Virus record (IMG/VR): IMGVR_UViG_2778261161_000002
Origin: a virus
Taxonomy: Duplodnaviria > Heunggongvirae > Uroviricota > Caudoviricetes
Strand: one strand, 5' to 3'
DNA: 64,000 nucleotides
Positions 3,876-50,030 of this stretch are shown piece after piece (the first letter of the stretch is position 1; the number at the start of each line of letters is the position of its first letter). A model generated the notes under the pieces. The model was not told the origin of the DNA. It saw only the letters and a list, made by a program, of their open reading frames with translations, and did no database searches. The position numbers and the translations under genes were made by a program.

Positions 3876-4243
3876 TGACCATCTCTGTTTTAGACCGCCT
3901 GAAATTAGGTAAAGAGCTATCAGATCTAATGCAGGCGCAGAAAACTGCGCCAGTATTGCAACGCGTCACCATTGGTAAGCAGATTGTTGATGTGATGCTG
4001 AAATTGGGCCTGGGGACTGCCGCGCAACCGGCAGCGGAACCGCAACAACAGGCTGATCCTGTTGTAGATGAAGTCCCTAAGATAGTGACTGACTTCCTGG
4101 GCGGTGTGTTCACAAAGTCCACACAAATGGAATTTATTGATGCGCTGCGTGGGATCTCAAACTATGTTGGCGAGTTCCTTACGTTGGAGCAGGCTAAAGA
4201 GCAGACCATAAGCTGGGTGAAAGCTAACGGTTATGCCGGGTAA
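3875..4243 (+). CDS. Hypothetical protein, 122 aa (DdrA-like position)
   Basis: ORF track; ATGA overlap with upstream gene. Confidence 0.4.
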   Translation: MTISVLDRLKLGKELSDLMQAQKTAPVLQRVTIGKQIVDVMLKLGLGTAAQPAAEPQQQADPVVDEVPKIVTDFLGGVFTKSTQMEFIDALRGISNYVGEFLTLEQAKEQTISWVKANGYAG

Positions 4244-4325: not shown

Positions 4326-5723
4326 TTGGAGTGTATTTTGAACAAATCAGTTACTTCTGCGCTTTCCGAGGCCGCAGATATTAACAGCGTCATTGCTCTG
4401 GTTTCTTCATTAGAGAGGAAAGAAACACACCTGGGGCGAAGTAGCTACGTAGTCACCAGCAAAGGTGCAGAGGTAAAGACGGCTTTTAAGGTCGTTGATG
4501 CCAGCAGTCTGATCATTTCGAACAACCTTGACGGTACGATTAACCCGGCCTTCCCGGAAGAACTCCAACCACGAGATCGTACCCGGCTATCCAGCAAACT
4601 CCAGGTTAACCGTATTGCCTCCAATTTACGCCCGGCACAATTAACGGATTCCGGTATGAGCAGCCACGGAGCGCCTATAGTTGGTCCGGACAACGTTGTT
4701 GAATCCGGCAACGGAAGGAGTATGGGTATCTGGCGTGCCTATGAGCAAGGACAGGCGGATGAGTATCGCCAGTACCTGATCGACCATGCGAAAGAGTTTG
4801 GTCTGAATCCTGACGAAATTTCGCAAATGTCTATGCCCGTACTGGTGCGAGAAAGACTCACAGATGTAGACCGCGCTCAATTTGCCCGCGATTCAAACAT
4901 TAGCGATCTGCAAGAGATGGCAGCAAGTGAAAAAGCGTATGCGGATGCGCAATTTCTCACTGAGAGCGTCATGGCGCTATTTAATCCTTCAGATGATGGA
5001 AATCTGCTGGCGCGGTCCAATGATGCGTTTATTCGTGCGTTTTTGCGCGAAATTGGCGATACAGCGACGGCAGGCTTGCTTACTGCCGATGGGCGTCCCA
5101 CGAAACAGCTTATCGATCGCATCCAGAATGCAATTTTTGCCAAAGCGTACAAGGATGAAAGGCTTGTTCGGCTGGTGTCGGAAGAGCCAGATCCGGAAAT
5201 GCGTAATATCCTGACCGCATTAAATACGGCAGCCAGCGATTTTGCGCAAATGCAGTCGCTGTCTGGCGACGCTCACCATGACGCAGTAACAGGCTTAGTG
5301 GACGGTATAGAGCAGGTTAATGGCCTGGATACACAGGCGATAGCAGCACTCCAGGAAGCAATTAATCTTGTACGTGAAGCCAAAGACAACGGTCAGGCCG
5401 TTGAAGAAGTGATCGCCCAAAGGGGGTTATTCGGCGACAGTACACCGGAAGCTGAGGCATTGGCGCTATTCATCGTAGCAAATAATCGCAGTGCGAAGCG
5501 TATGGGGGCAGCATTCAAAAAAATGGCGCAAAAAATCAACGACGAGCTGACTCATAAACAACAGGCATTGGGCGATATGTTCGGCGGTGGCGATGTTGAT
5601 CTGCGTCGTATTTTGTCTGCTGTATCTGATGAAATTGAGGGTGAATTTGGCGAAGGGAAAGGTCTGAACTTTGCTATGTTTGAAAATTCTACGGATCTAA
5701 ATAATTGCCGTACGGAAAACTAA
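4326..5723 (+). CDS. ParB/sulfiredoxin-like nuclease-domain protein, 465 aa
   Basis: N-terminal region ELQPRDRTRLSSKLQVNRIASNLRPAQL ... VVESGNGRSMGIWRAY resembles ParB N-terminal domain; non-ATG (TTG) start implied by ORF track. Confidence 0.45.
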   Translation: MECILNKSVTSALSEAADINSVIALVSSLERKETHLGRSSYVVTSKGAEVKTAFKVVDASSLIISNNLDGTINPAFPEELQPRDRTRLSSKLQVNRIASNLRPAQLTDSGMSSHGAPIVGPDNVVESGNGRSMGIWRAYEQGQADEYRQYLIDHAKEFGLNPDEISQMSMPVLVRERLTDVDRAQFARDSNISDLQEMAASEKAYADAQFLTESVMALFNPSDDGNLLARSNDAFIRAFLREIGDTATAGLLTADGRPTKQLIDRIQNAIFAKAYKDERLVRLVSEEPDPEMRNILTALNTAASDFAQMQSLSGDAHHDAVTGLVDGIEQVNGLDTQAIAALQEAINLVREAKDNGQAVEEVIAQRGLFGDSTPEAEALALFIVANNRSAKRMGAAFKKMAQKINDELTHKQQALGDMFGGGDVDLRRILSAVSDEIEGEFGEGKGLNFAMFENSTDLNNCRTEN

Positions 5724-9708: not shown

Positions 9709-9929
9709 ATTAATTTGCTGTTTCTAAATCGGAATGTATGATCTGCATCATCGACTGAAGTCATCCATTGCTGAAATTTTTAGTTGATCTTCCATGTTTT
9801 CAGGCTTATATTCATGCCGTCGTAGCAAATTCTGCGACCAGGTTTGACAGCCTGAATGTTAGTGCGGACAACCGCAGATTTCCGATATTGCGGTATTTTT
9901 GTGTCCGTAAACCGCGTTACGCCCGAATT

Positions 9930-10030
9930 ATGGTGGGGCGTGATGGGGAGGCTTCGGCCTGCTGGTCTCACTAACGCCAGTCTGTCAACCCTGTCACGTC
10001 CTGCCACCTGTTTGACAGCGGGTAGCAGGT
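9930..10030 (+). ncRNA. Candidate c4-like antisense RNA region of immI module 1
   Basis: Direct repeats GTTTGACAGC at 9842 and 10010 flank a complementary CTGTCAAC at 9982, upstream of icd-like ORF; architecture as in P1 c4. Confidence 0.3.
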
Positions 10031-23125: not shown

Positions 23126-23202
23126 GATGGTGTAGCTCAGTAGGATAGAGCAGCAGCCTTCTAAGCTGTCGGTCGGTGGTTCGAATCCATCCACCATCGC
23201 CA
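23126..23202 (+). tRNA. tRNA-Arg (anticodon TCT, reads AGA)
   Basis: Manual fold: acceptor GATGGTG/CACCATC, D-arm GCTC..GAGC, anticodon loop CTTCTAA, T-arm GGTGG-TTCGAAT-CCATC, CCA encoded. Confidence 0.8.
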
Positions 23203-23204
23203 AT

Positions 23205-23279
23205 GCCGGTTTAGCTCAGTTGGTAGAGCGCCTGCCTTGTAAGCAGGATGTCAGCGGTTCGAGTCCGTTAACCGGCACC
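23205..23279 (+). tRNA. tRNA-Thr (anticodon TGT)
   Basis: Acceptor GCCGGTT/AACCGGC, anticodon loop CTTGTAA, T-loop TTCGAGT. Confidence 0.8.
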
Positions 23280-23734
23280 GACACAACAGGTAAGGGTATT
23301 TTGCGACGTCGGAGATCGCCGTGCTTGGCAGAGGGTTCGAATCCCTACGAAGTACCCTTACCGTTGTGATGAAGTGCAGCTCTTTGAAGCAACCAGAAGA
23401 TAAGCATCTGGCTTCACAACATAAACCGCATGAACGACCAATAAACGGTAGTCCGTATGGAGAACACCCCGTTGAGGAAGAGGCCTGGCCGGAACCGTAA
23501 CCGGCACTACAACGTTGAGAACACTGGCGTAACGGGGTCATATCCCAATCTATGAATAAATGTTGCGTTGCAGCGTGACAACCAGTGTTCTCAACATTGT
23601 GGTGAATGCGCAGGCTGATGCGCGAAAGACATTGCAGCTATTGCGGAAAAGAGCTGTTCGGCGGGGCAATTAAACGCCCGTGAGAGTCTGAAATAACCGC
23701 AAGCCGGAGATCAGCACCGGTCGCCACAATCAGC

Positions 23735-23821
23735 GGAGAGTAGGGGGCATGGTGCTCAAGCGGTCTTGAAAACCGTCCCATTGCGCAAGCGATGATGGTT
23801 CGATTCCATTACTCTCCGCCA
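23735..23821 (+). tRNA. Probable class II tRNA, anticodon TGA (Ser-like), long variable arm
   Basis: Acceptor GGAGAGT/ACTCTCC, anticodon arm GCGGT-CTTGAAA-ACCGT identical in loop to E. coli tRNA-Ser(UGA), T-arm GATGG-TTCGATT-CCATT, CCA; D-arm atypical. Confidence 0.55.
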
Positions 23822-24442
23822 TCGCAACGTTAAGAGTATTTGGCTAATTAAGCGAATGCCGGAAGCAGAACCGGATCATCAAATGCGTACAGGCGTCATC
23901 GCCGCCCAGCCAGCCAAGTGCTCTTACCATTGCGGTGAATGCGGCTAAGCGCACGCGGAACAGTTAAAACAATCCTCCTTAGTGGTTAAGTCAAACATCC
24001 CGGCGTTAATTGTTAACTGGTTAACGTCACCTGGAGGCACCAGGCACCGCAATCTAATAAAGTTTCAAGCAATGGGGTTTTTGTTGTCAGACTTCAGATA
24101 TAGATGGTTGTGGAAGGAGAGCCTGTACATAGTGCAGTTATTTCTTCCGCTATTTGTCTGCTTTGTCATGCTTCCTGAGCTGAAATACGCAATTTCAGAC
24201 ACTTTAAGCACTATCGTTACTTTTGTGTTTTATCTTTACTTTGATTACTTATTGAGCACTAAAATCAATGAATTATCCGAGGAAATGCAAGGTGGCTGTA
24301 AGTGATGGATTTTTGGGCGTTTGCCGATAAGAACCCTGGTTGGACATTTTTATTTTTGCTGGTGGTTGCATATGGGGTCGAGCAAGCGGCTAAAGCCTTA
24401 CGCGGTTCTGGCAAAAAGCGTAAGCGGAATTAACAGTAATCT

Positions 24443-24518
24443 GGCCCTTTAGCTCAGTGGTTAGAGCAGGCGACTCATAATCGCACGGTCACCGGTTCAA
24501 ATCCGGTAGGGGCCACCA
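24443..24518 (+). tRNA. tRNA-Ile2-like (anticodon CAT, AUA decoder) or tRNA-Met
   Basis: GGCCCTTTAGCTCAGTGGTTAGAGCAGGCGACTCATAATCGC... near-identical to E. coli ileX from memory; T-arm ACCGG-TTCAAAT-CCGGT; CCA. Confidence 0.8.
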
Positions 24519-26048: not shown

Positions 26049-26441
26049 ATGGAACAAATCAGCAGCGCAGAAATTGCGGATATCATGATCAGGGCTGACT
26101 GCTATCTGACAGTCACTGAAATTACCACTCTCGCCAAAGAAAAATACCCTCATCTCCATGTTTCACGAGTAAGTGTAACTAACATCATTCGTCATTTTGT
26201 TCGTTCAAGCAGGGCAATCTGTGAGCTGGATGATCGTGTGTATCCACGAAAATACTGGCTACATGGTCTGAACGGATATCAGTTCAAGGTGCGCGGGCGC
26301 ACGCCTGAATACGGTAGCTTACTGGTTAAAAACTGTAGCAGGAAATCAGTCGAACAGGCGCGAAAAGAGCAACGAGAGCTGGTGGACATGGCGAATAAGC
26401 TGTGGAATGCCGCCGTTAAAAAGCGTGGTGTTGCTTTATGA
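26049..26441 (+). CDS. Hypothetical protein upstream of pacA (Lpa-like position), 130 aa
   Basis: ORF track; position immediately upstream of terminase genes. Confidence 0.4.
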   Translation: MEQISSAEIADIMIRADCYLTVTEITTLAKEKYPHLHVSRVSVTNIIRHFVRSSRAICELDDRVYPRKYWLHGLNGYQFKVRGRTPEYGSLLVKNCSRKSVEQARKEQRELVDMANKLWNAAVKKRGVAL

Positions 26442-27802
26442 GTCTGGTTAATTGGGAGGAGCACCGCGCCCGCTTTATAGCGTTGCGTGAAGAAAAAGGG
26501 ATCACTGTAAAGGAATACTGTGAGGAGCATGGCCTTAGCTTCAATACAGCCAGAAAGCATCTCAATATGAAAAAAAATGAGGTGCGGTCGCAGGTAAAGA
26601 CAACAAAAAAAAGCACCAAATCACCTGAAAAAAAACGGGCGGGAAGAGCAACAAAAAAGCTGGAAGAGGGCGCAGAAAAAACAAAATTTACAGAAATTGA
26701 CAATTCGCAGGGTGCAGGTTCTTTCCGAAGTATGCCAAGAAAGAAAACTCCGGATCATGAAAGTAATACCAATAATAACAATGAGATAAAAGAATCTGTC
26801 AGGAGATCATTGCGCGAAAAAATGGCGAAAATGATCCCCGAAGAAGATAAAAGCGCCCCAAAAATTGAGGGATCTTCAGCAATGATCCCTGGCGGTGCTG
26901 TGCAACGTGCCACATTGCCCACTACGAATGTGGCTCGCGACATGATGAAGAACGGCGCAGAAGAACACCTGCGGTTAGCAATTCAAATGGCGCAAGAGCG
27001 CGCACTTCAGTATCAAAGCATTGTTGATCAGGAGGCCGAACGTCTACAGGCGGAAATAGACGCCTTGGGCGATAAAGAGCCAGAAGGAATGCACCCTGGG
27101 CAGCGCCTTCTCGGTCTAATCAGTGACGCGGCCTACTACATGAATGATTTTATCAGTAGGTTGGCAGCTATATATCAGTCCGAACAAAAGCTGCGACAGG
27201 GGGATGAAAAGCTTCGTCAGAGCGCTCGCCAGCAAGCATTCAAAGAGGCTGAGGCCAGAGAAAAACTCGAATTAGCACGCCTACAGGCCGAACAGCGTGG
27301 CAAAGAGATTGAATATCGCATTGGCGCTGACGCACGCGCAGCCAGAGTTATCGCCGCCGCTATACGTATGCGTGAGCGCGAGGAACTGGATGATATCGGT
27401 GTTGCTGAATACATCGAGCGCCAGGGGGTCAGCGTCCCGGCTATCCTCGCGGCGCGCGCGGCGAAAGCTATCACTCTTCTCGAACCACCTGTTTCTGACG
27501 TCAATGATGTTGATGATGAACAGCTGGACAAAGAGGCAAGGGAGTTTGCGACGCTTCAGGCTAACCATCCGCAATGGCTGGCAGAGCGCCGGGCGGATGT
27601 GGCAACCATTGTTGAAGAATTGGGGTGCGGAGATTACGACCGCAATGGCGAGCGTAAAGCTGGAGAATTCGAGGCCAACGACGAAGAGCTGGATATTGAC
27701 CCTTCGGCAACGGCTGAAATTTACGGTGATTATGATGCATCTGATGCAGGGTATGACGCCGGAGATGATGATATCGCGATAGAACCGCCGGAGGATGATT
27801 AA
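26438..27802 (+). CDS. pacA: Terminase small subunit PacA-like, 454 aa, acidic C-terminus
   Basis: Position upstream of and coupled to PacB-like ATPase; basic N-terminus, acidic tail DASDAGYDAGDDDIAIEPPEDD; contains GATC cluster. Confidence 0.55.
   Translation: MSLVNWEEHRARFIALREEKGITVKEYCEEHGLSFNTARKHLNMKKNEVRSQVKTTKKSTKSPEKKRAGRATKKLEEGAEKTKFTEIDNSQGAGSFRSMPRKKTPDHESNTNNNNEIKESVRRSLREKMAKMIPEEDKSAPKIEGSSAMIPGGAVQRATLPTTNVARDMMKNGAEEHLRLAIQMAQERALQYQSIVDQEAERLQAEIDALGDKEPEGMHPGQRLLGLISDAAYYMNDFISRLAAIYQSEQKLRQGDEKLRQSARQQAFKEAEAREKLELARLQAEQRGKEIEYRIGADARAARVIAAAIRMREREELDDIGVAEYIERQGVSVPAILAARAAKAITLLEPPVSDVNDVDDEQLDKEAREFATLQANHPQWLAERRADVATIVEELGCGDYDRNGERKAGEFEANDEELDIDPSATAEIYGDYDASDAGYDAGDDDIAIEPPEDD
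26750..26890. other. Candidate pac (packaging cleavage) site: 5 GATC sites in about 135 bp
   Basis: GATC at 26753, 26805, 26833, 26871, 26884 in contexts GGATCA, AGATCA, TGATCC, GGATCT, TGATCC. Confidence 0.45.
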
Positions 27803-29310
27803 TGGCTGGAGGGCGCAAGATTAAATGCGTCACCAGCGATCCACGCTGGCGCGATATGGTAATCAAATACCGCTACAACTTTACCCAGGCTGTTGTCGAT
27901 ATTTTTGGGATGTTCCCCTCCCACCAGCAGCAGCAGATCATTCAGTCCGTGCAGGAAACGGGGAGTAGGACGACCGTCACGTCCGGACACGGAACGGGGA
28001 AGTCGTCCCTTACCGCGATGTTGCTGTTGATTTTCATGATCCTGTTCCCCGATGCCCGTGTCATCATTGTTGCTAACAAGATAGGCCAGGTAAAAACAGG
28101 CGTATTCAAATACGTTAAACAGTATTGGGCGAATGCAGTTAAGCGTCATGGGTGGTTGCAGACCTATTTTGTCCTCTCTGACACCATGTTTTATGAGCGC
28201 TCCCGTAAGGGGATTTGGGAAGTTCTCTGCAAAGGTTATCGACTCGGCAACGAAGAAGCGCTGGCGGGGGAACACGCGGCACATTTGCTTCTAATTCTGG
28301 ATGAAGCATCTGGTATATCTGATAAGGCGATCGGCGTAATGACCGGTGCTCTTACTGAAGAAGATAACCGGATGTTGATGCTATCCCAGCCAACAAGGCC
28401 AAGTGGTTATTTTTACGATTCGCACCATTCTCAAGCAAAAACCCCAGACAACCCGAAAGGGATCTGGACAGCAATTGTTCTTAACTCGGAAGAATCACCG
28501 TTCGTCACACCACAATTCATCAAGCAGAAGCTTCTGGAATATGGGGGGCGCGATTCTATTGAGTACATGGTCAAGGTGCTTGGTCAGTTCCCACGAGAAA
28601 TTAACGGCTATTTGCTTGGTCGTGATGAATGCGATCGCGCTGCTCGCCGCAAGGTGCTGTTGGAGAAAAACTGGGGATGGGTGGCAACGGCTGACGTTGG
28701 TAATGGGCGAGATAAGTCGGTCCTCAACATCTGCAAGGTATCTGGTCACAGGGATAAGCGGCGCGTTGTTAACTTTAAGGTAATGGAGATGCCTGGCACT
28801 ATGGACCCATTGGCCTTTGCTGACTTCATATATAACGAATGTACGCCGGAAAAATACCCGAATATAACAATCGCGGTTGATGCTGATGGTTTTGGTTCTG
28901 ATACGTGTGCGCAGTTGGTGCGTCGTGGTGCGAACCCGGTACGTATTCGGTGGGGAAAACCCATGTTTGCGAACAAAGACAGGGAGCGATTTGTTAATCA
29001 GCGTGCCTACGCAAATATTATGGCGCGAGATGCCATAAAGTCAGGGCGTATGCGGATAGACAGTGACCCTAAAACGGCAGAGCAAGCGTCAAAAATCCCC
29101 TTTTTACTGAATGAAGAAGGGAAAATGGCGATGATGCGCAAAGAGCACATGCGGCAAAAGCTAAACATCAAATCGCCTGACCGATGGGATACCTACTGCT
29201 TCACTATGCTGGTGGACTATGTGCCTGCTAATGAAGATATTGGTGCCGAAATGGCAACTTTCCGAGATCAGGTTCTGGCGGATATCGAAATGCCGGATCT
29301 GGATATATAA
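27802..29310 (+). CDS. pacB: Terminase large subunit PacB-like, 502 aa
   Basis: Walker A TSGHGTGKSS, Walker B LLLILDEASGI, C-terminal acidic nuclease-like region. Confidence 0.75.
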   Translation: MAGGRKIKCVTSDPRWRDMVIKYRYNFTQAVVDIFGMFPSHQQQQIIQSVQETGSRTTVTSGHGTGKSSLTAMLLLIFMILFPDARVIIVANKIGQVKTGVFKYVKQYWANAVKRHGWLQTYFVLSDTMFYERSRKGIWEVLCKGYRLGNEEALAGEHAAHLLLILDEASGISDKAIGVMTGALTEEDNRMLMLSQPTRPSGYFYDSHHSQAKTPDNPKGIWTAIVLNSEESPFVTPQFIKQKLLEYGGRDSIEYMVKVLGQFPREINGYLLGRDECDRAARRKVLLEKNWGWVATADVGNGRDKSVLNICKVSGHRDKRRVVNFKVMEMPGTMDPLAFADFIYNECTPEKYPNITIAVDADGFGSDTCAQLVRRGANPVRIRWGKPMFANKDRERFVNQRAYANIMARDAIKSGRMRIDSDPKTAEQASKIPFLLNEEGKMAMMRKEHMRQKLNIKSPDRWDTYCFTMLVDYVPANEDIGAEMATFRDQVLADIEMPDLDI

Positions 29311-29337: not shown

Positions 29338-30375
29338 TTACCAGAGCTTCGCGGCGTACTGCGTTTGGGGGAATGTGTATCCGTAACGTTCTTCGATTGC
29401 TTTGCCGTATTTTTTACGAGCTTCATTCAGTTTAATGCCGGTCAGGTCGTCTCCAGAGGCCATCATTACGTCTAACAATTCCAGATCCATTTTATCCAGC
29501 CTTGCCATTGCTTCACGTGATGTACGTATCTTACGTTCAATGATATGGCGAATAGCCGGATCGGCATCCTCCAGCATCTTAGCGGATTTCTGCTTAAGGC
29601 TTTCATTGCGAATATCGATGTTCCTTAAGATGTACGACTTCGCAACGTAGCTTGGCTGGTGTTTTTCCAGGTCACGAACACGATATAAGTTAAAATCGCC
29701 GAGAAGGCTGCAAGGTACCGATTCGACGCCAGAATAAATTGTAATGCTCCGGCGTTCACCAACATTATTGACAACGGGGATCGTTGTCTTCGGTAGTCTT
29801 GCGAAAACCAATGCGCCATGTGCGCCAACTCTAAAGCGAGAAAGGGCATTGCTGCCTTCGATGTTTGTTGTCAGCACAACATCTGTATATGCCTCTTTAC
29901 GCGCCCGGTAGATCTCGCCTTCAGGCTCAGCTTCAAAGAAGCGCTGTTCTTCTTCAAGAGCACCTACGATTTGAGAAAAAACCCTATTTTTCAGGCTTTT
30001 CTTTATGATTTTGTCGTATTTTTTTAGCAATTGTTCACGTGTAAATGTACGTGTTGTTGTAGCGCTTTGCACAACGACATGCGTGCTTTGATTGGTGTCC
30101 TCAATGATGAATGGGATCGGAGAATATACAGACTCAACAATGTTCGACGCTTTGCCGTCGGCATCGCGGCACATGTCAACGAAGGCTTTCCATTCAGCAA
30201 GACATTTTTCAGCTTCTTCTAATATGTTTTGGTCATGCGTTAATGCAACATGGCGGAATTCCTCGCCAGCATAACTGGTATCATGGAAAACAGAGTTTGC
30301 GACCACCAGCTCTTTCCACCGTTCAGCGGTTTGCAGGAACCGTTTGTACTCTTTCTCGATCGACTTCTTACTCAT
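29338..30375 (-). CDS. Putative C1-like immunity repressor, 345 aa
   Basis: Position between pacB and lox/cre as in P1; operator-like motif 20 bp upstream of its start; no family motif verified. Confidence 0.4.
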   Translation of the reverse strand: MSKKSIEKEYKRFLQTAERWKELVVANSVFHDTSYAGEEFRHVALTHDQNILEEAEKCLAEWKAFVDMCRDADGKASNIVESVYSPIPFIIEDTNQSTHVVVQSATTTRTFTREQLLKKYDKIIKKSLKNRVFSQIVGALEEEQRFFEAEPEGEIYRARKEAYTDVVLTTNIEGSNALSRFRVGAHGALVFARLPKTTIPVVNNVGERRSITIYSGVESVPCSLLGDFNLYRVRDLEKHQPSYVAKSYILRNIDIRNESLKQKSAKMLEDADPAIRHIIERKIRTSREAMARLDKMDLELLDVMMASGDDLTGIKLNEARKKYGKAIEERYGYTFPQTQYAAKLW

Positions 30376-30394
30376 TATTCCTACTCGATTTAGT

Positions 30395-30403
30395 TTTCTA
30401 ACA
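30395..30403 (+). promoter_or_regulatory. Operator-like motif (copy 8) at promoter of repressor-like gene
   Basis: agtTTTCTAACAtaaaatt; partial second copy TTTTAGAAAA at 30477..30488. Confidence 0.5.
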
Positions 30404-30584
30404 TAAAATTACTATGACAAATTTATGTCGAATAACAGAGTGAGTAAAGGATCGAACTGTGATTTTTTGTCATCAATTTTAGAAAACCAACCGTAGAAAC
30501 CACACTTCGCAAATTAAAGACCATGAAGGCAACGTGTTACTGGTCATCATCAATCTATGATGGATTTAAAAAAATCGGCATTTT

Positions 30585-30618
30585 ATAACTTTAAATAATT
30601 GGCATTATTTAAAGTTAG
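30585..30618 (+). other. lox-like recombination site: ATAACTTTAAATA-ATTGGCAT-TATTTAAAGTTAG
   Basis: 13-bp inverted arms (12 of 13 complementary) around an 8-bp asymmetric spacer; outer arm ATAACTT identical to loxP; about 150 bp upstream of Cre homolog. Confidence 0.7.
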
Positions 30619-30626
30619 GCTATAAT
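30599..30626 (+). promoter_or_regulatory. Sigma70-like promoter TTGGCA-N16-TATAAT overlapping the lox-like site
   Basis: -35 TTGGCA 30599..30604 lies in the lox spacer; -10 TATAAT 30621..30626; reads toward cre homolog. Confidence 0.45.
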
Positions 30627-30769
30627 CATGTGTAGATGAACAGTGTTGACATCACTGAAAATACGTGCCTCGAATCAAAGGCTTGTATTTTGAAAATTAA
30701 CTTATAGCTACCCTGTCATTTTTATATTTTTCGCGTAGCGTCATCTGTATATAGAGGTGTAATAGTTTC

Positions 30770-31798
30770 ATGAGTGAATTAATTATCTCTGGCAGTTCCG
30801 GTGGTTTTCTGCGCAACATTGGCAAAGAGTACCAGGAAGCCGCAGAAAACTTTATGCGGTTCATGAATGACCAGGGGGCTTATGCGCCGAATACTCTGCG
30901 CGACCTCCGGTTGGTGTTTCATTCCTGGGCGCGCTGGTGTCACGCTCGCCAGCTTGCCTGGTTTCCGATCTCACCAGAAATGGCCCGCGAGTATTTTCTT
31001 CAGCTGCATGATGCCGATCTGGCTTCGACCACCATTGATAAGCACTACGCCATGCTGAACATGCTGCTTTCGCATTGTGGCCTTCCGCCACTTTCGGATG
31101 ATAAAAGTGTTTCTCTGGCTATGCGGCGCATCCGGCGCGAAGCGGCAACTGAAAAAGGCGAACGAACAGGCCAGGCTATACCGCTTCGGTGGGACGATCT
31201 GAAACTGCTCGACGTCCTGTTGTCCAGGTCAGAACGGCTGGTGGACCTGCGCAACCTGGCTTTTCTCTTTGTTGCATACAATACGCTGATGCGTATGTCG
31301 GAAATATCGCGTATTCGTGTAGGTGATCTGGACCAAACAGGTGACACTGTCACGCTACATATTTCACACACGAAGACAATAACGACCGCCGCCGGGCTTG
31401 ATAAGGTGCTTTCCCGTCGCACTACCGCTGTGCTGAATGACTGGCTGGATGTTTCCGGGCTTCGCGAGCATCCTGACGCTGTGCTGTTCCCGCCGATACA
31501 CCGTAGCAATAAGGCCAGGATCACGATAACGCCCCTTACTGCACCTGCAATGGAGAAAATATTCAGCGACGCCTGGGTGTTGCTGAATAAAAGAGATGCT
31601 ACGCCAAACAAAGGAAGATACCGGACGTGGACCGGGCATAGTGCACGCGTCGGGGCCGCTATTGATATGGCTGAAAAGCAGGTGTCTATGGTGGAGATCA
31701 TGCAGGAAGGAACCTGGAAGAAACCGGAAACACTTATGCGGTATCTTCGCCGTGGCGGCGTGTCTGTGGGGGCTAATAGCCGCCTGATGGATTTGTAA
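30770..31798 (+). CDS. cre: Cre-like tyrosine recombinase, 342 aa
   Basis: Blocks WFPISPEMAREYFLQL, NMLLSHCGLPPLSDDKSVSLAMRRIRRE, IRNLAFLFVAYNTLMRMSEISRIRVGDL, WTGHSARVGAAIDMA, LMRYLRR align with P1 Cre including catalytic R, H, R, W, Y. Confidence 0.85.
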   Translation: MSELIISGSSGGFLRNIGKEYQEAAENFMRFMNDQGAYAPNTLRDLRLVFHSWARWCHARQLAWFPISPEMAREYFLQLHDADLASTTIDKHYAMLNMLLSHCGLPPLSDDKSVSLAMRRIRREAATEKGERTGQAIPLRWDDLKLLDVLLSRSERLVDLRNLAFLFVAYNTLMRMSEISRIRVGDLDQTGDTVTLHISHTKTITTAAGLDKVLSRRTTAVLNDWLDVSGLREHPDAVLFPPIHRSNKARITITPLTAPAMEKIFSDAWVLLNKRDATPNKGRYRTWTGHSARVGAAIDMAEKQVSMVEIMQEGTWKKPETLMRYLRRGGVSVGANSRLMDL

Positions 31799-31804
31799 AT
31801 TAAA

Positions 31805-31813
31805 TTTCTAACA
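31805..31813 (+). promoter_or_regulatory. Operator-like motif (copy 9)
   Basis: aaaTTTCTAACAcatct just after cre stop. Confidence 0.45.
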
Positions 31814-31871
31814 CATCTTTTTAGATTAACATCTTTGCTGTAAAGTACCCTCGCCTATTTAGGAGGGTGCT

Positions 31872-32216
31872 TTGCAGAGTCAAATCACGGAATCAAGACG
31901 CTTCAAGGTGGATGGTTACACCGTAACCTTCGCCGCTGGTGTTAAGAACAGTCATGCTGTCGTTGTGTTCGGCATCATGACCGGGCTTGAGGCCGTCCCT
32001 GTGTTTACCCTCGAAAAAAACTGGCGAAATCTGGAGGAAGCAGAAAGCTACGTCCGGAAAGTAACCATCATTGCCGCCGAAAAACTCCTGGCCCACTATC
32101 AGGAAAATTATCGCACTATGGTCGAGAAGATTAATCTCGCTTTCACTCGCCCCACTACCGGCTTTATTGCACCGGATACTAATGCAGGTCGATATCCTGC
32201 AAGGGGGCGTCGGTGA
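31872..32216 (+). CDS. Hypothetical protein, 114 aa (cra-like position)
   Basis: ORF track; RBS GGAGGG. Confidence 0.45.
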   Translation: MQSQITESRRFKVDGYTVTFAAGVKNSHAVVVFGIMTGLEAVPVFTLEKNWRNLEEAESYVRKVTIIAAEKLLAHYQENYRTMVEKINLAFTRPTTGFIAPDTNAGRYPARGRR

Positions 32217-49251: not shown

Positions 49252-49879
49252 TTTTAAGTTGAATTGTAAATTTCTCCGATGTACATTCACTACCGATTGG
49301 CACACCGGTCAACTTTTTGAGACAAACTGTTTAGTTTTTCGTATTATTGCCCCCGCCATACCTATGGCGGTGCAATATAGGTGGCTGAAAAGCCCCCGTT
49401 GACTCACGGTGTTCCAGCCTTTATTGCGCCGCCACCAGACCGTGGAACAGTCGATGGCGGCTCCGAAAGCAAGGAGTCACTACACTATGAACAACTACAG
49501 TCTTTTCCCATCACTCGTCGTCCACCACTCACGCGATAATCTGCATTCTTTATTCGCGCTGGGGGAGTCAAAATGACTGTTCGCTACCTCAACTTTCAAA
49601 TCAAGAACATTACTGGCGGTTGCTATGACTGGTTTGTCACTCTCGGAAAAGAAGTGATTACCGGGAAGCTGGATGAAGTGAAAGCTAAAGCAATGGCCTA
49701 CGCCTGCAAGCAAGCCCGGAAGAAATCCGCCAAAGCATAAAATACTGACTGTTGCGCCCTGGCATTATCGTGGGGTATATTTCTACGGCACCTTAGAAAA
49801 ACGGGTGCCGGGATTGGAACCCCGGATAATGCAAAAGGCGACACAGACGCCGAAAGCGTCTTTTCTTGTGTCATGCCAT

Positions 49880-50030
49880 CGCACAGCCATACGTAGCGTT
49901 TAGCTCAGAGATCAATGGTAGTGCTGGCTGGGCTGCCGAAAGGCAGGCCGGTTCCCTTTTGCGCCGGTAGTTCCAACCCAGTCAGTGCTACCGCCATTGA
50001 GATTGGAACCTCACGCGGTAGCTCCTTAAA
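49880..50030 (+). ncRNA. Candidate c4-like antisense RNA region of immI module 2
   Basis: GATTGGAACC at 49812 and 50001 with partially complementary GTTCCAACC at 49970; tRNA-like TAGCTCAG segment. Confidence 0.3.

Follow-up and report, generated by a model that had tools for sequence, protein, structure and literature searches.

Introduction

The Dre/rox recombination system of Escherichia phage D6 was reportedly described by Sauer and McDermott in 2004 (Nucleic Acids Res 32:6086). Beside Cre/loxP it is well established in genome engineering and is applied in mice, zebrafish, cell lines and bacteria. In E. coli and in mammalian cells Dre acts on pairs of rox sites and not on loxP, and Cre, Dre, VCre and Vika do not cross-react with one another's sites (PMC3082901, PMC3553980). 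The published roxP site is the 32-bp sequence 5'-TAACTTTAAATAATGCCAATTATTTAAAGTTA-3' (PMC4777119), and with its two native D6 boundary bases rox has been printed as (A)TAACTTTAAATAAT TGGC ATTATTTAAAGTTA(G) (PMC3082901). Randomised positions flanking the 4-bp centre affect compatibility more than a randomised centre does, and the authors of that work concluded that the functional crossover region of rox is probably about the length of that of loxP (PMC4777119). Other described pairs (Panto/pox, Nigri/nox, Vika/vox, VCre/VloxP and SCre/SloxP) resemble the locus reported here in that a short inverted-repeat target lies close to a tyrosine recombinase, but they involve other proteins, sites and hosts, and none is identical to the sequence studied here. 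Panto also recombines rox (PMC4957104).

The DNA analysed in this study, referred to as the window, is a stretch of 64,000 nucleotides from a virus of the Caudoviricetes (IMG/VR record IMGVR_UViG_2778261161_000002). An original prediction made from its letters alone proposed that a palindrome in the window was a lox-like site of novel specificity, that it was the target of a diverged Cre homolog encoded nearby and that it overlapped a promoter through which the recombinase could regulate its own gene. Judged by its sequence, the flagged palindrome is a rediscovery of the well-known Dre/rox pair and was already known. The promoter and the proposed autoregulation are the sole part for which no description was found in the literature, the two primary D6 papers aside.

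Results

The palindrome is the rox site of phage D6

A repeat finder returned a perfect 14-4-14 inverted repeat, TAACTTTAAATAAT-TGGC-ATTATTTAAAGTTA, lying between a repressor gene and a recombinase gene (Table 1). No other perfect inverted repeat with arms of 12 nt or more and a spacer of 10 nt or less exists in the 64 kb. In Markov-1 random sequences, used to set the chance level, repeats with arms of 12 nt or longer numbered 0.07 on average, and arms of 14 nt or longer never occurred. The 32-mer is also single in the window when up to 3 mismatches are allowed, and it was found 0 times in 100 shuffles. The palindrome is real and far beyond chance.

Table 1. Coordinates of the rox-dre locus and its neighbouring genes in the 64-kb window
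Feature	Coordinates	Strand	Description	Basis
pacA and pacB, packaging terminase genes	26438..29310	+	ORFs of 454 and 502 aa	pacA and pacB of AY753669
c1, phage repressor gene	29338..30375	-	345 aa; left of rox, divergent	c1 CDS of AY753669
rox, 32-bp Dre target	30586..30617	.	left arm 30586-30599, asymmetric centre TGGC 30600-30603, right arm 30604-30617	14-4-14 repeat; reverse complement of published roxP; aligned AY753669 feature; invariance across diverged elements
-35-like hexamer TTGGCA	30599..30604	+	last left-arm base, 4-nt centre and first right-arm base; putative function	consensus scan
-10-like hexamer TATAAT	30621..30626	+	3 nt past the right arm of rox, toward dre; predicted start near 30633	
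dre, Cre-like tyrosine recombinase	30770..31798	+	342 aa	339/342 residues vs AAV84949; Pfam Phage_integrase; matches to Cre structures; catalytic and specificity residues

When window positions 30300-31900 were searched with megablast against a phage collection, three Escherichia phage D6 records matched at 97% identity, and the D6 features beneath the match were annotated as 'dre: tyrosine recombinase', 'c1: phage repressor protein' and 'region of crossover (rox) site for Dre recombinase'. Identity to the D6 immC record AY753669 amounts to 97.4% across this region. The rox feature of that record (4909..4940) corresponds exactly to the 32-mer of the window, and this 32-mer, read on the opposite strand, is letter for letter the published 32-bp roxP, TAACTTTAAATAATGCCAATTATTTAAAGTTA. 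The intergenic region between c1 and dre is 99% identical to that of D6, with rox and both promoter hexamers unchanged. By comparison with the AY753669 annotation, rox occupies the same place here, from c1 to dre within the pac-c1 region of a P1-related phage. The locus is therefore like Dre/rox of D6 (AY753669, MF356679) in its identical 32-bp site and promoter hexamers, in the order pacA-pacB-c1-rox-dre and in a recombinase with 339 of 342 residues identical. The differences are that the replicon in the window is a relative of D6, with about 97% DNA identity here, and that its Dre carries the changes R163L, T253I and S342L.

These matches indicate that the 32-mer is almost certainly rox, the target of the Dre encoded by the downstream ORF, and that both are carried by a D6-like E. 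coli phage-plasmid. Nothing speaks against the identification as rox and Dre. A previously undescribed lox specificity, as the original prediction read the site, would account for the difference from loxP, to which 22/34 positions are identical. However, no new lox specificity is present, because the sequence is identical to the published rox (AY753669 annotation; PMC4777119, PMC3082901) and the recombinase shares 99% identity with Dre. The matches in databases and in the literature refute that reading, and its probability is practically nil. The narrower claim that the specificity is distinct from that of loxP was correct, given that neither Cre on rox nor Dre on loxP cross-reacts (PMC3082901, PMC3553980).

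The 34 bp cited in the original prediction (30585..30618, with TATAAT at 30621..30626) are exactly rox plus the boundary bases printed in PMC3082901. They had been parsed as 13-8-13, the architecture of loxP, and this holds only in part. By symmetry rox is a 14-4-14 site, whereas loxP is 13-8-13, and rox does not have the perfect 13-bp arms and 8-bp asymmetric spacer of a lox-type site. The 13-8-13 parse scores 12/13 because its outermost bases, A30585 and G30618, are non-complementary. However, the 8-bp 'spacer' of that parse, ATTGGCAT, corresponds to the loxP-length crossover register, and a functional crossover of about loxP length has been suggested for rox (PMC4777119). The arm ends ATAACTT had also been described as identical to loxP. 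Of these bases TAACTT is indeed shared, but the leading A30585 lies outside the conserved site, because some lineages have A there and others C. In gene orientation rox and P1 loxP share the 22/34 positions, including TAACTT at the arm ends, and they have the same orientation relative to the gene.

A second copy of the site, which the original prediction had suggested looking for, was absent from the window with up to 3 mismatches to the 32-mer. It was also absent from the closest complete plasmid, CP057047 (93,415 bp), with up to 9 mismatches. That replicon has one rox only, and besides two chance matches with 2 mismatches it contains no further arm-like half-sites.

The recombinase has the residues of a Cre-type enzyme with rox specificity

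The claim that the site is the lox-type target of a diverged Cre homolog was borne out. The best solved relatives of the protein encoded by ORF 30770..31798 are Cre structures (E = 3e-69), its global identity to P1 Cre is 40.8%, and it contains a Phage_integrase domain (PF00589, E = 9e-16). It shares fold and family with Cre as well as all catalytic residues: R175, E178, K202, H290, R293, W316 and Y325 align with R173, E176, K201, H289, R292, W315 and Y324 of Cre. The R-E-K-H-R-W-Y set and the Phage_integrase domain place it in the Cre subfamily of tyrosine recombinases. At the positions of K43, R259 and G263 in Cre, the protein has R44, P259 and K263, the residues associated with rox specificity. 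A Cre triple mutant with K43R/R259P/G263K acquires rox activity (PMC4957104).

The three substitutions R163L, T253I and S342L separate the window allele from the reference Dre of D6 (AAV84949), and from the activity of the reference protein the window allele is predicted to recombine rox. Among public contigs, 129 carry the exact window allele and at least 1000 the reference D6 allele. Codon 163 encodes L in the window Dre and R in all other Dre-type sequences examined; L is found at the aligned residue in P1 Cre and in one 54%-identical homolog.

The window belongs to a D6-like plasmid prophage

The window is 99.5% identical and collinear over 39.5 kb with E. coli plasmid CP057047, a D6/P1-like plasmid prophage. 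It is a D6-like plasmid prophage of E. coli, a close relative of D6 and not D6 itself. The terminase genes pacA and pacB complete the order pac-c1-rox-dre of P1-related phages. No match to the 345-aa C1 was found in the copy of Pfam-A that was searched, and precomputed annotations assign its homologs in related loci to PF27008 (Phage_P7_repressor_C1).

Three segments of the window have no counterpart in CP057047 (39493-40921, 56434-56742 and 62011-62740) and represent indels or replaced segments. Two separate C4 antisense RNA loci were detected, one at 9806-10011, which also matches c4-a1b1 targets, and one at 49788-49998, which also matches isrK. The presence of two C4 loci points to two immI-like immunity modules, and this fits the annotation of the related plasmid, which lists two Icd/Rha gene pairs. 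On the plus strand, positions 23126-24518 contain four clustered tRNA genes (Arg-TCT, Thr-TGT, Ser-TGA and Met-CAT).

The rox 32-mer is invariant across diverged elements

The rox-dre pair is carried by 144 plasmids of PLSDB and by 124 of 5,426 complete E. coli genomes. It is found at a median of one place per genome in these E. coli genomes, and 124 of the 127 places are plasmid-borne. For sequence comparison, 31 loci from plasmids and IMG/VR were reduced to 21 distinct sequence contexts. The 32-mer is kept at 100% in elements whose identity to the window is 61-82% in the left flank, 75-85% in the right flank and 80-88% in dre, while the adjoining outer base A30585 is A or C depending on the lineage. 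The original prediction was to be given up if the inverted repeat were not conserved in related elements with the same recombinase; the 32-mer proved invariant across diverged elements. By this pattern, the rox 32-mer is under strict purifying selection.

More distant recombinases that are 63-69% identical (Klebsiella, Raoultella and a metagenome) keep the same synteny of c1 and recombinase gene and are accompanied by rox or by rox with 1-2 arm changes. A Leclercia homolog of 51% identity is accompanied by another palindrome, TATAGATAAT-AGGC-ATTATCTATA. The dre gene of Shigella dysenteriae CP026821 is cut short at codon 193, and the accompanying site, near position 4000 of that locus (L009), has 4 substitutions, TAACTTTAGATAAT-TAGT-ATTATTTAAAGCTA, with the -10 lost. 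Judging from these changes, rox and dre decay together in this element.

The comparison also bears on whether the palindrome might mainly be the operator of a transcription factor, for example of the adjacent C1 repressor, and not a recombination site. An operator would fit a palindrome that overlaps a promoter in the c1-dre control region, and the C1 operators of P1 flank lox. However, a P1-type C1 operator, ATTGCTCTAATAAATTT, was absent throughout the window with up to 3 mismatches, which is consistent with a different immunity specificity. Moreover, the palindrome occurs once per replicon, whereas the C1 operators of P1 are dispersed round the genome; the same 32 bp suffice for Dre recombination in heterologous hosts (PMC4777119, PMC3082901); and the site decays together with dre. 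A main role as an operator is consequently very improbable, and a recombination site is strongly preferred.

Some loci depart from the common pattern. Over the interval corresponding to window positions 30286-30917, the identity of loci L008 (NZ_CP100729) and L024 to the window rises across rox, from 81-82% over 300 bp on its left to about 99% over 300 bp on its right. This switch looks like a mosaic junction of the kind that exchange at rox would leave. The centre of rox is GGGG in L023 (IMGVR_UViG_2579778873_000001), where dre is intact, and TAGC or GCTA, depending on the strand read, in L031 (IMGVR_UViG_3300009011_000012), and position 9 of the left arm is changed from A to G in L008. These variants could be naturally heterospecific sites.

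A near-consensus promoter overlaps rox

The original prediction of a promoter overlapping the site was confirmed at the level of motifs. TTGGCA and TATAAT, 16 nt apart and so within the 16-18 nt range, match the sigma-70 consensus at 11 of 12 positions. This is the best match in the window, and the two strands together (128 kb) contain no other that reaches 11/12. Only the conservation of the -10 is informative here, because the recombination site dictates the sequence of the -35. TATAAT is present in 20 of the 21 rox contexts and TATGAT in the remaining one, while the 3 nt before the -10 vary (GGC, GTA, GAC and AGC), as do the bases after it. Outside this set the Raoultella homolog retains TTGGCA, 16 nt and TATAAT, and the Leclercia element, with its different site, has the same register (TAGGCA, 18 nt, TATGAT). 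In other distant homologs the -10 is weaker (TAGCAT, TATAAC) or missing. This distribution suggests that the predicted promoter is functional, which we consider somewhat better supported than an even chance.

It could also be that the match is incidental, with TTGGCA supplied by the needs of the site and TATAAT by an AT-rich intergenic region, and that dre is transcribed from elsewhere with no self-regulation. Several observations are in keeping with this. The -35 is unable to vary independently of rox, the -10 is weak or missing in distant homologs that have rox or rox-like sites, and a perfectly conserved TTGACA further downstream (30646-30651) could serve another promoter. In addition, a full-text literature search, the two primary D6 papers aside, found nothing on Dre autoregulation, and the promoters of P1 cre do not overlap lox: P4cre is annotated upstream of lox, P3cre to P1cre downstream, and P2coi reads leftward, whereas the -35 in the window lies in the centre of the site. 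Against an incidental match, the promoter is the only one of its quality in the 128 kb, and TATAAT recurs in 20/21 contexts from at least three lineages with differing neighbour bases. Leclercia, despite its different site, still has a -35 in the centre followed by a -10, and the TTGACA at 30646-30651 has no acceptable -10 at 16-18 nt downstream. An incidental match is possible but less than even in probability, and a working promoter overlapping rox is preferred.

The intergenic region contains other conserved sequences. A run of 6-8 A residues (window 30568-30574), about 11 nt upstream of rox, is common to all four differently flanked lineages, while the bases around it differ between them; it might be a DNA bend or an UP-like element. 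Between rox and dre, the motif CAGTRTTGACA (30641-30651), with a perfect -35 hexamer inside, is kept in all lineages. It is followed by an imperfect 13-nt inverted repeat (30658-30691) that a scan scored as terminator-like on the minus strand only. Repetition within the window is not significant for CAGTRTTGACA or for the other conserved intergenic motif, TGAGTAAAGGAT. The predicted 5' leader (30633-30775) folds no better than shuffled sequences (z = -1.31), and because of this no attenuator is claimed.

Discussion

Another D6-like plasmid prophage with rox and dre adds nothing fundamental to what is known of this pair, although the survey of plasmids and complete E. coli genomes does show that the pair is common in nature. 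By homology to Cre-loxP, one Dre monomer would bind each arm of rox, two rox sites would synapse in a tetramer, and Tyr325 would cleave and exchange strands within the central region by way of a Holliday intermediate, with the asymmetric TGGC centre setting the direction of the site. The likely roles are resolution of plasmid-prophage dimers and cyclisation of terminally redundant infecting DNA. It should be noted that both are carried over by analogy from Cre-lox of P1 and not from data on D6. The analogy extends to the arrangement of the locus, since in P1 as well c1 and the recombinase gene flank the site, which is present once per genome. However, cra and about 400 bp separate lox from cre in P1, whereas the gap between rox and dre in the window is 152 bp, and no annotated P1 promoter overlaps lox.

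The layout of the predicted promoter suggests how Dre might regulate itself in the phage. The -35 would lie in the crossover centre, with the AT-rich left arm upstream of it and the -10 placed 3 nt past the right arm, and this near-consensus sigma-70 promoter would drive dre until Dre bound at rox blocked RNA polymerase and limited its own synthesis. Repression of the predicted promoter by rox-bound Dre is a tentative proposal, and it is held with less confidence than the promoter itself. The complete proposal, in which rox doubles as the core of the dre promoter and occupancy by Dre shuts dre transcription off, is rather unlikely to be correct in all its parts. A functional precedent exists in the Tn3/gamma-delta family, where the resolvase binding site res overlaps the promoter of the resolvase gene and self-repression has been demonstrated experimentally. 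Resolvase is a serine recombinase and res has three subsites, so the likeness is one of functional analogy only. Self-repression of this kind is what we suggest for Dre at rox, with the difference that resolvase autoregulation is demonstrated and that of Dre is a proposal.

If the proposal is true, rox acting as a promoter would form a self-limiting circuit that Cre-lox of P1 lacks, and natural changes in the rox centre, such as the GGGG of one IMG/VR contig, would alter both Dre expression and site compatibility. For practical purposes, wild-type rox carries a near-consensus bacterial promoter that reads outward, which calls for some caution when rox is placed in bacterial constructs.

The survey also turned up dre-rox outside the usual phage-plasmid setting. 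Loci L003 (NZ_CP029493), L004 (NZ_CP075720) and L010 (NZ_CP049291) combine a perfect rox with a dre homolog that is about 79% identical in DNA sequence, and in each the homology to the window starts at rox or just before it. They occupy resistance regions in plasmids of non-phage or hybrid type (IncFIB/IncHI1B, IncY and IncC/IncFIB), with nearby resistance genes that include mph(A), sul3 and tet(A). Mobile elements adjoin all three, namely IS26 and IS903B in L003, IS26 on both sides in L004 and Tn3/TEM-1 upstream in L010.
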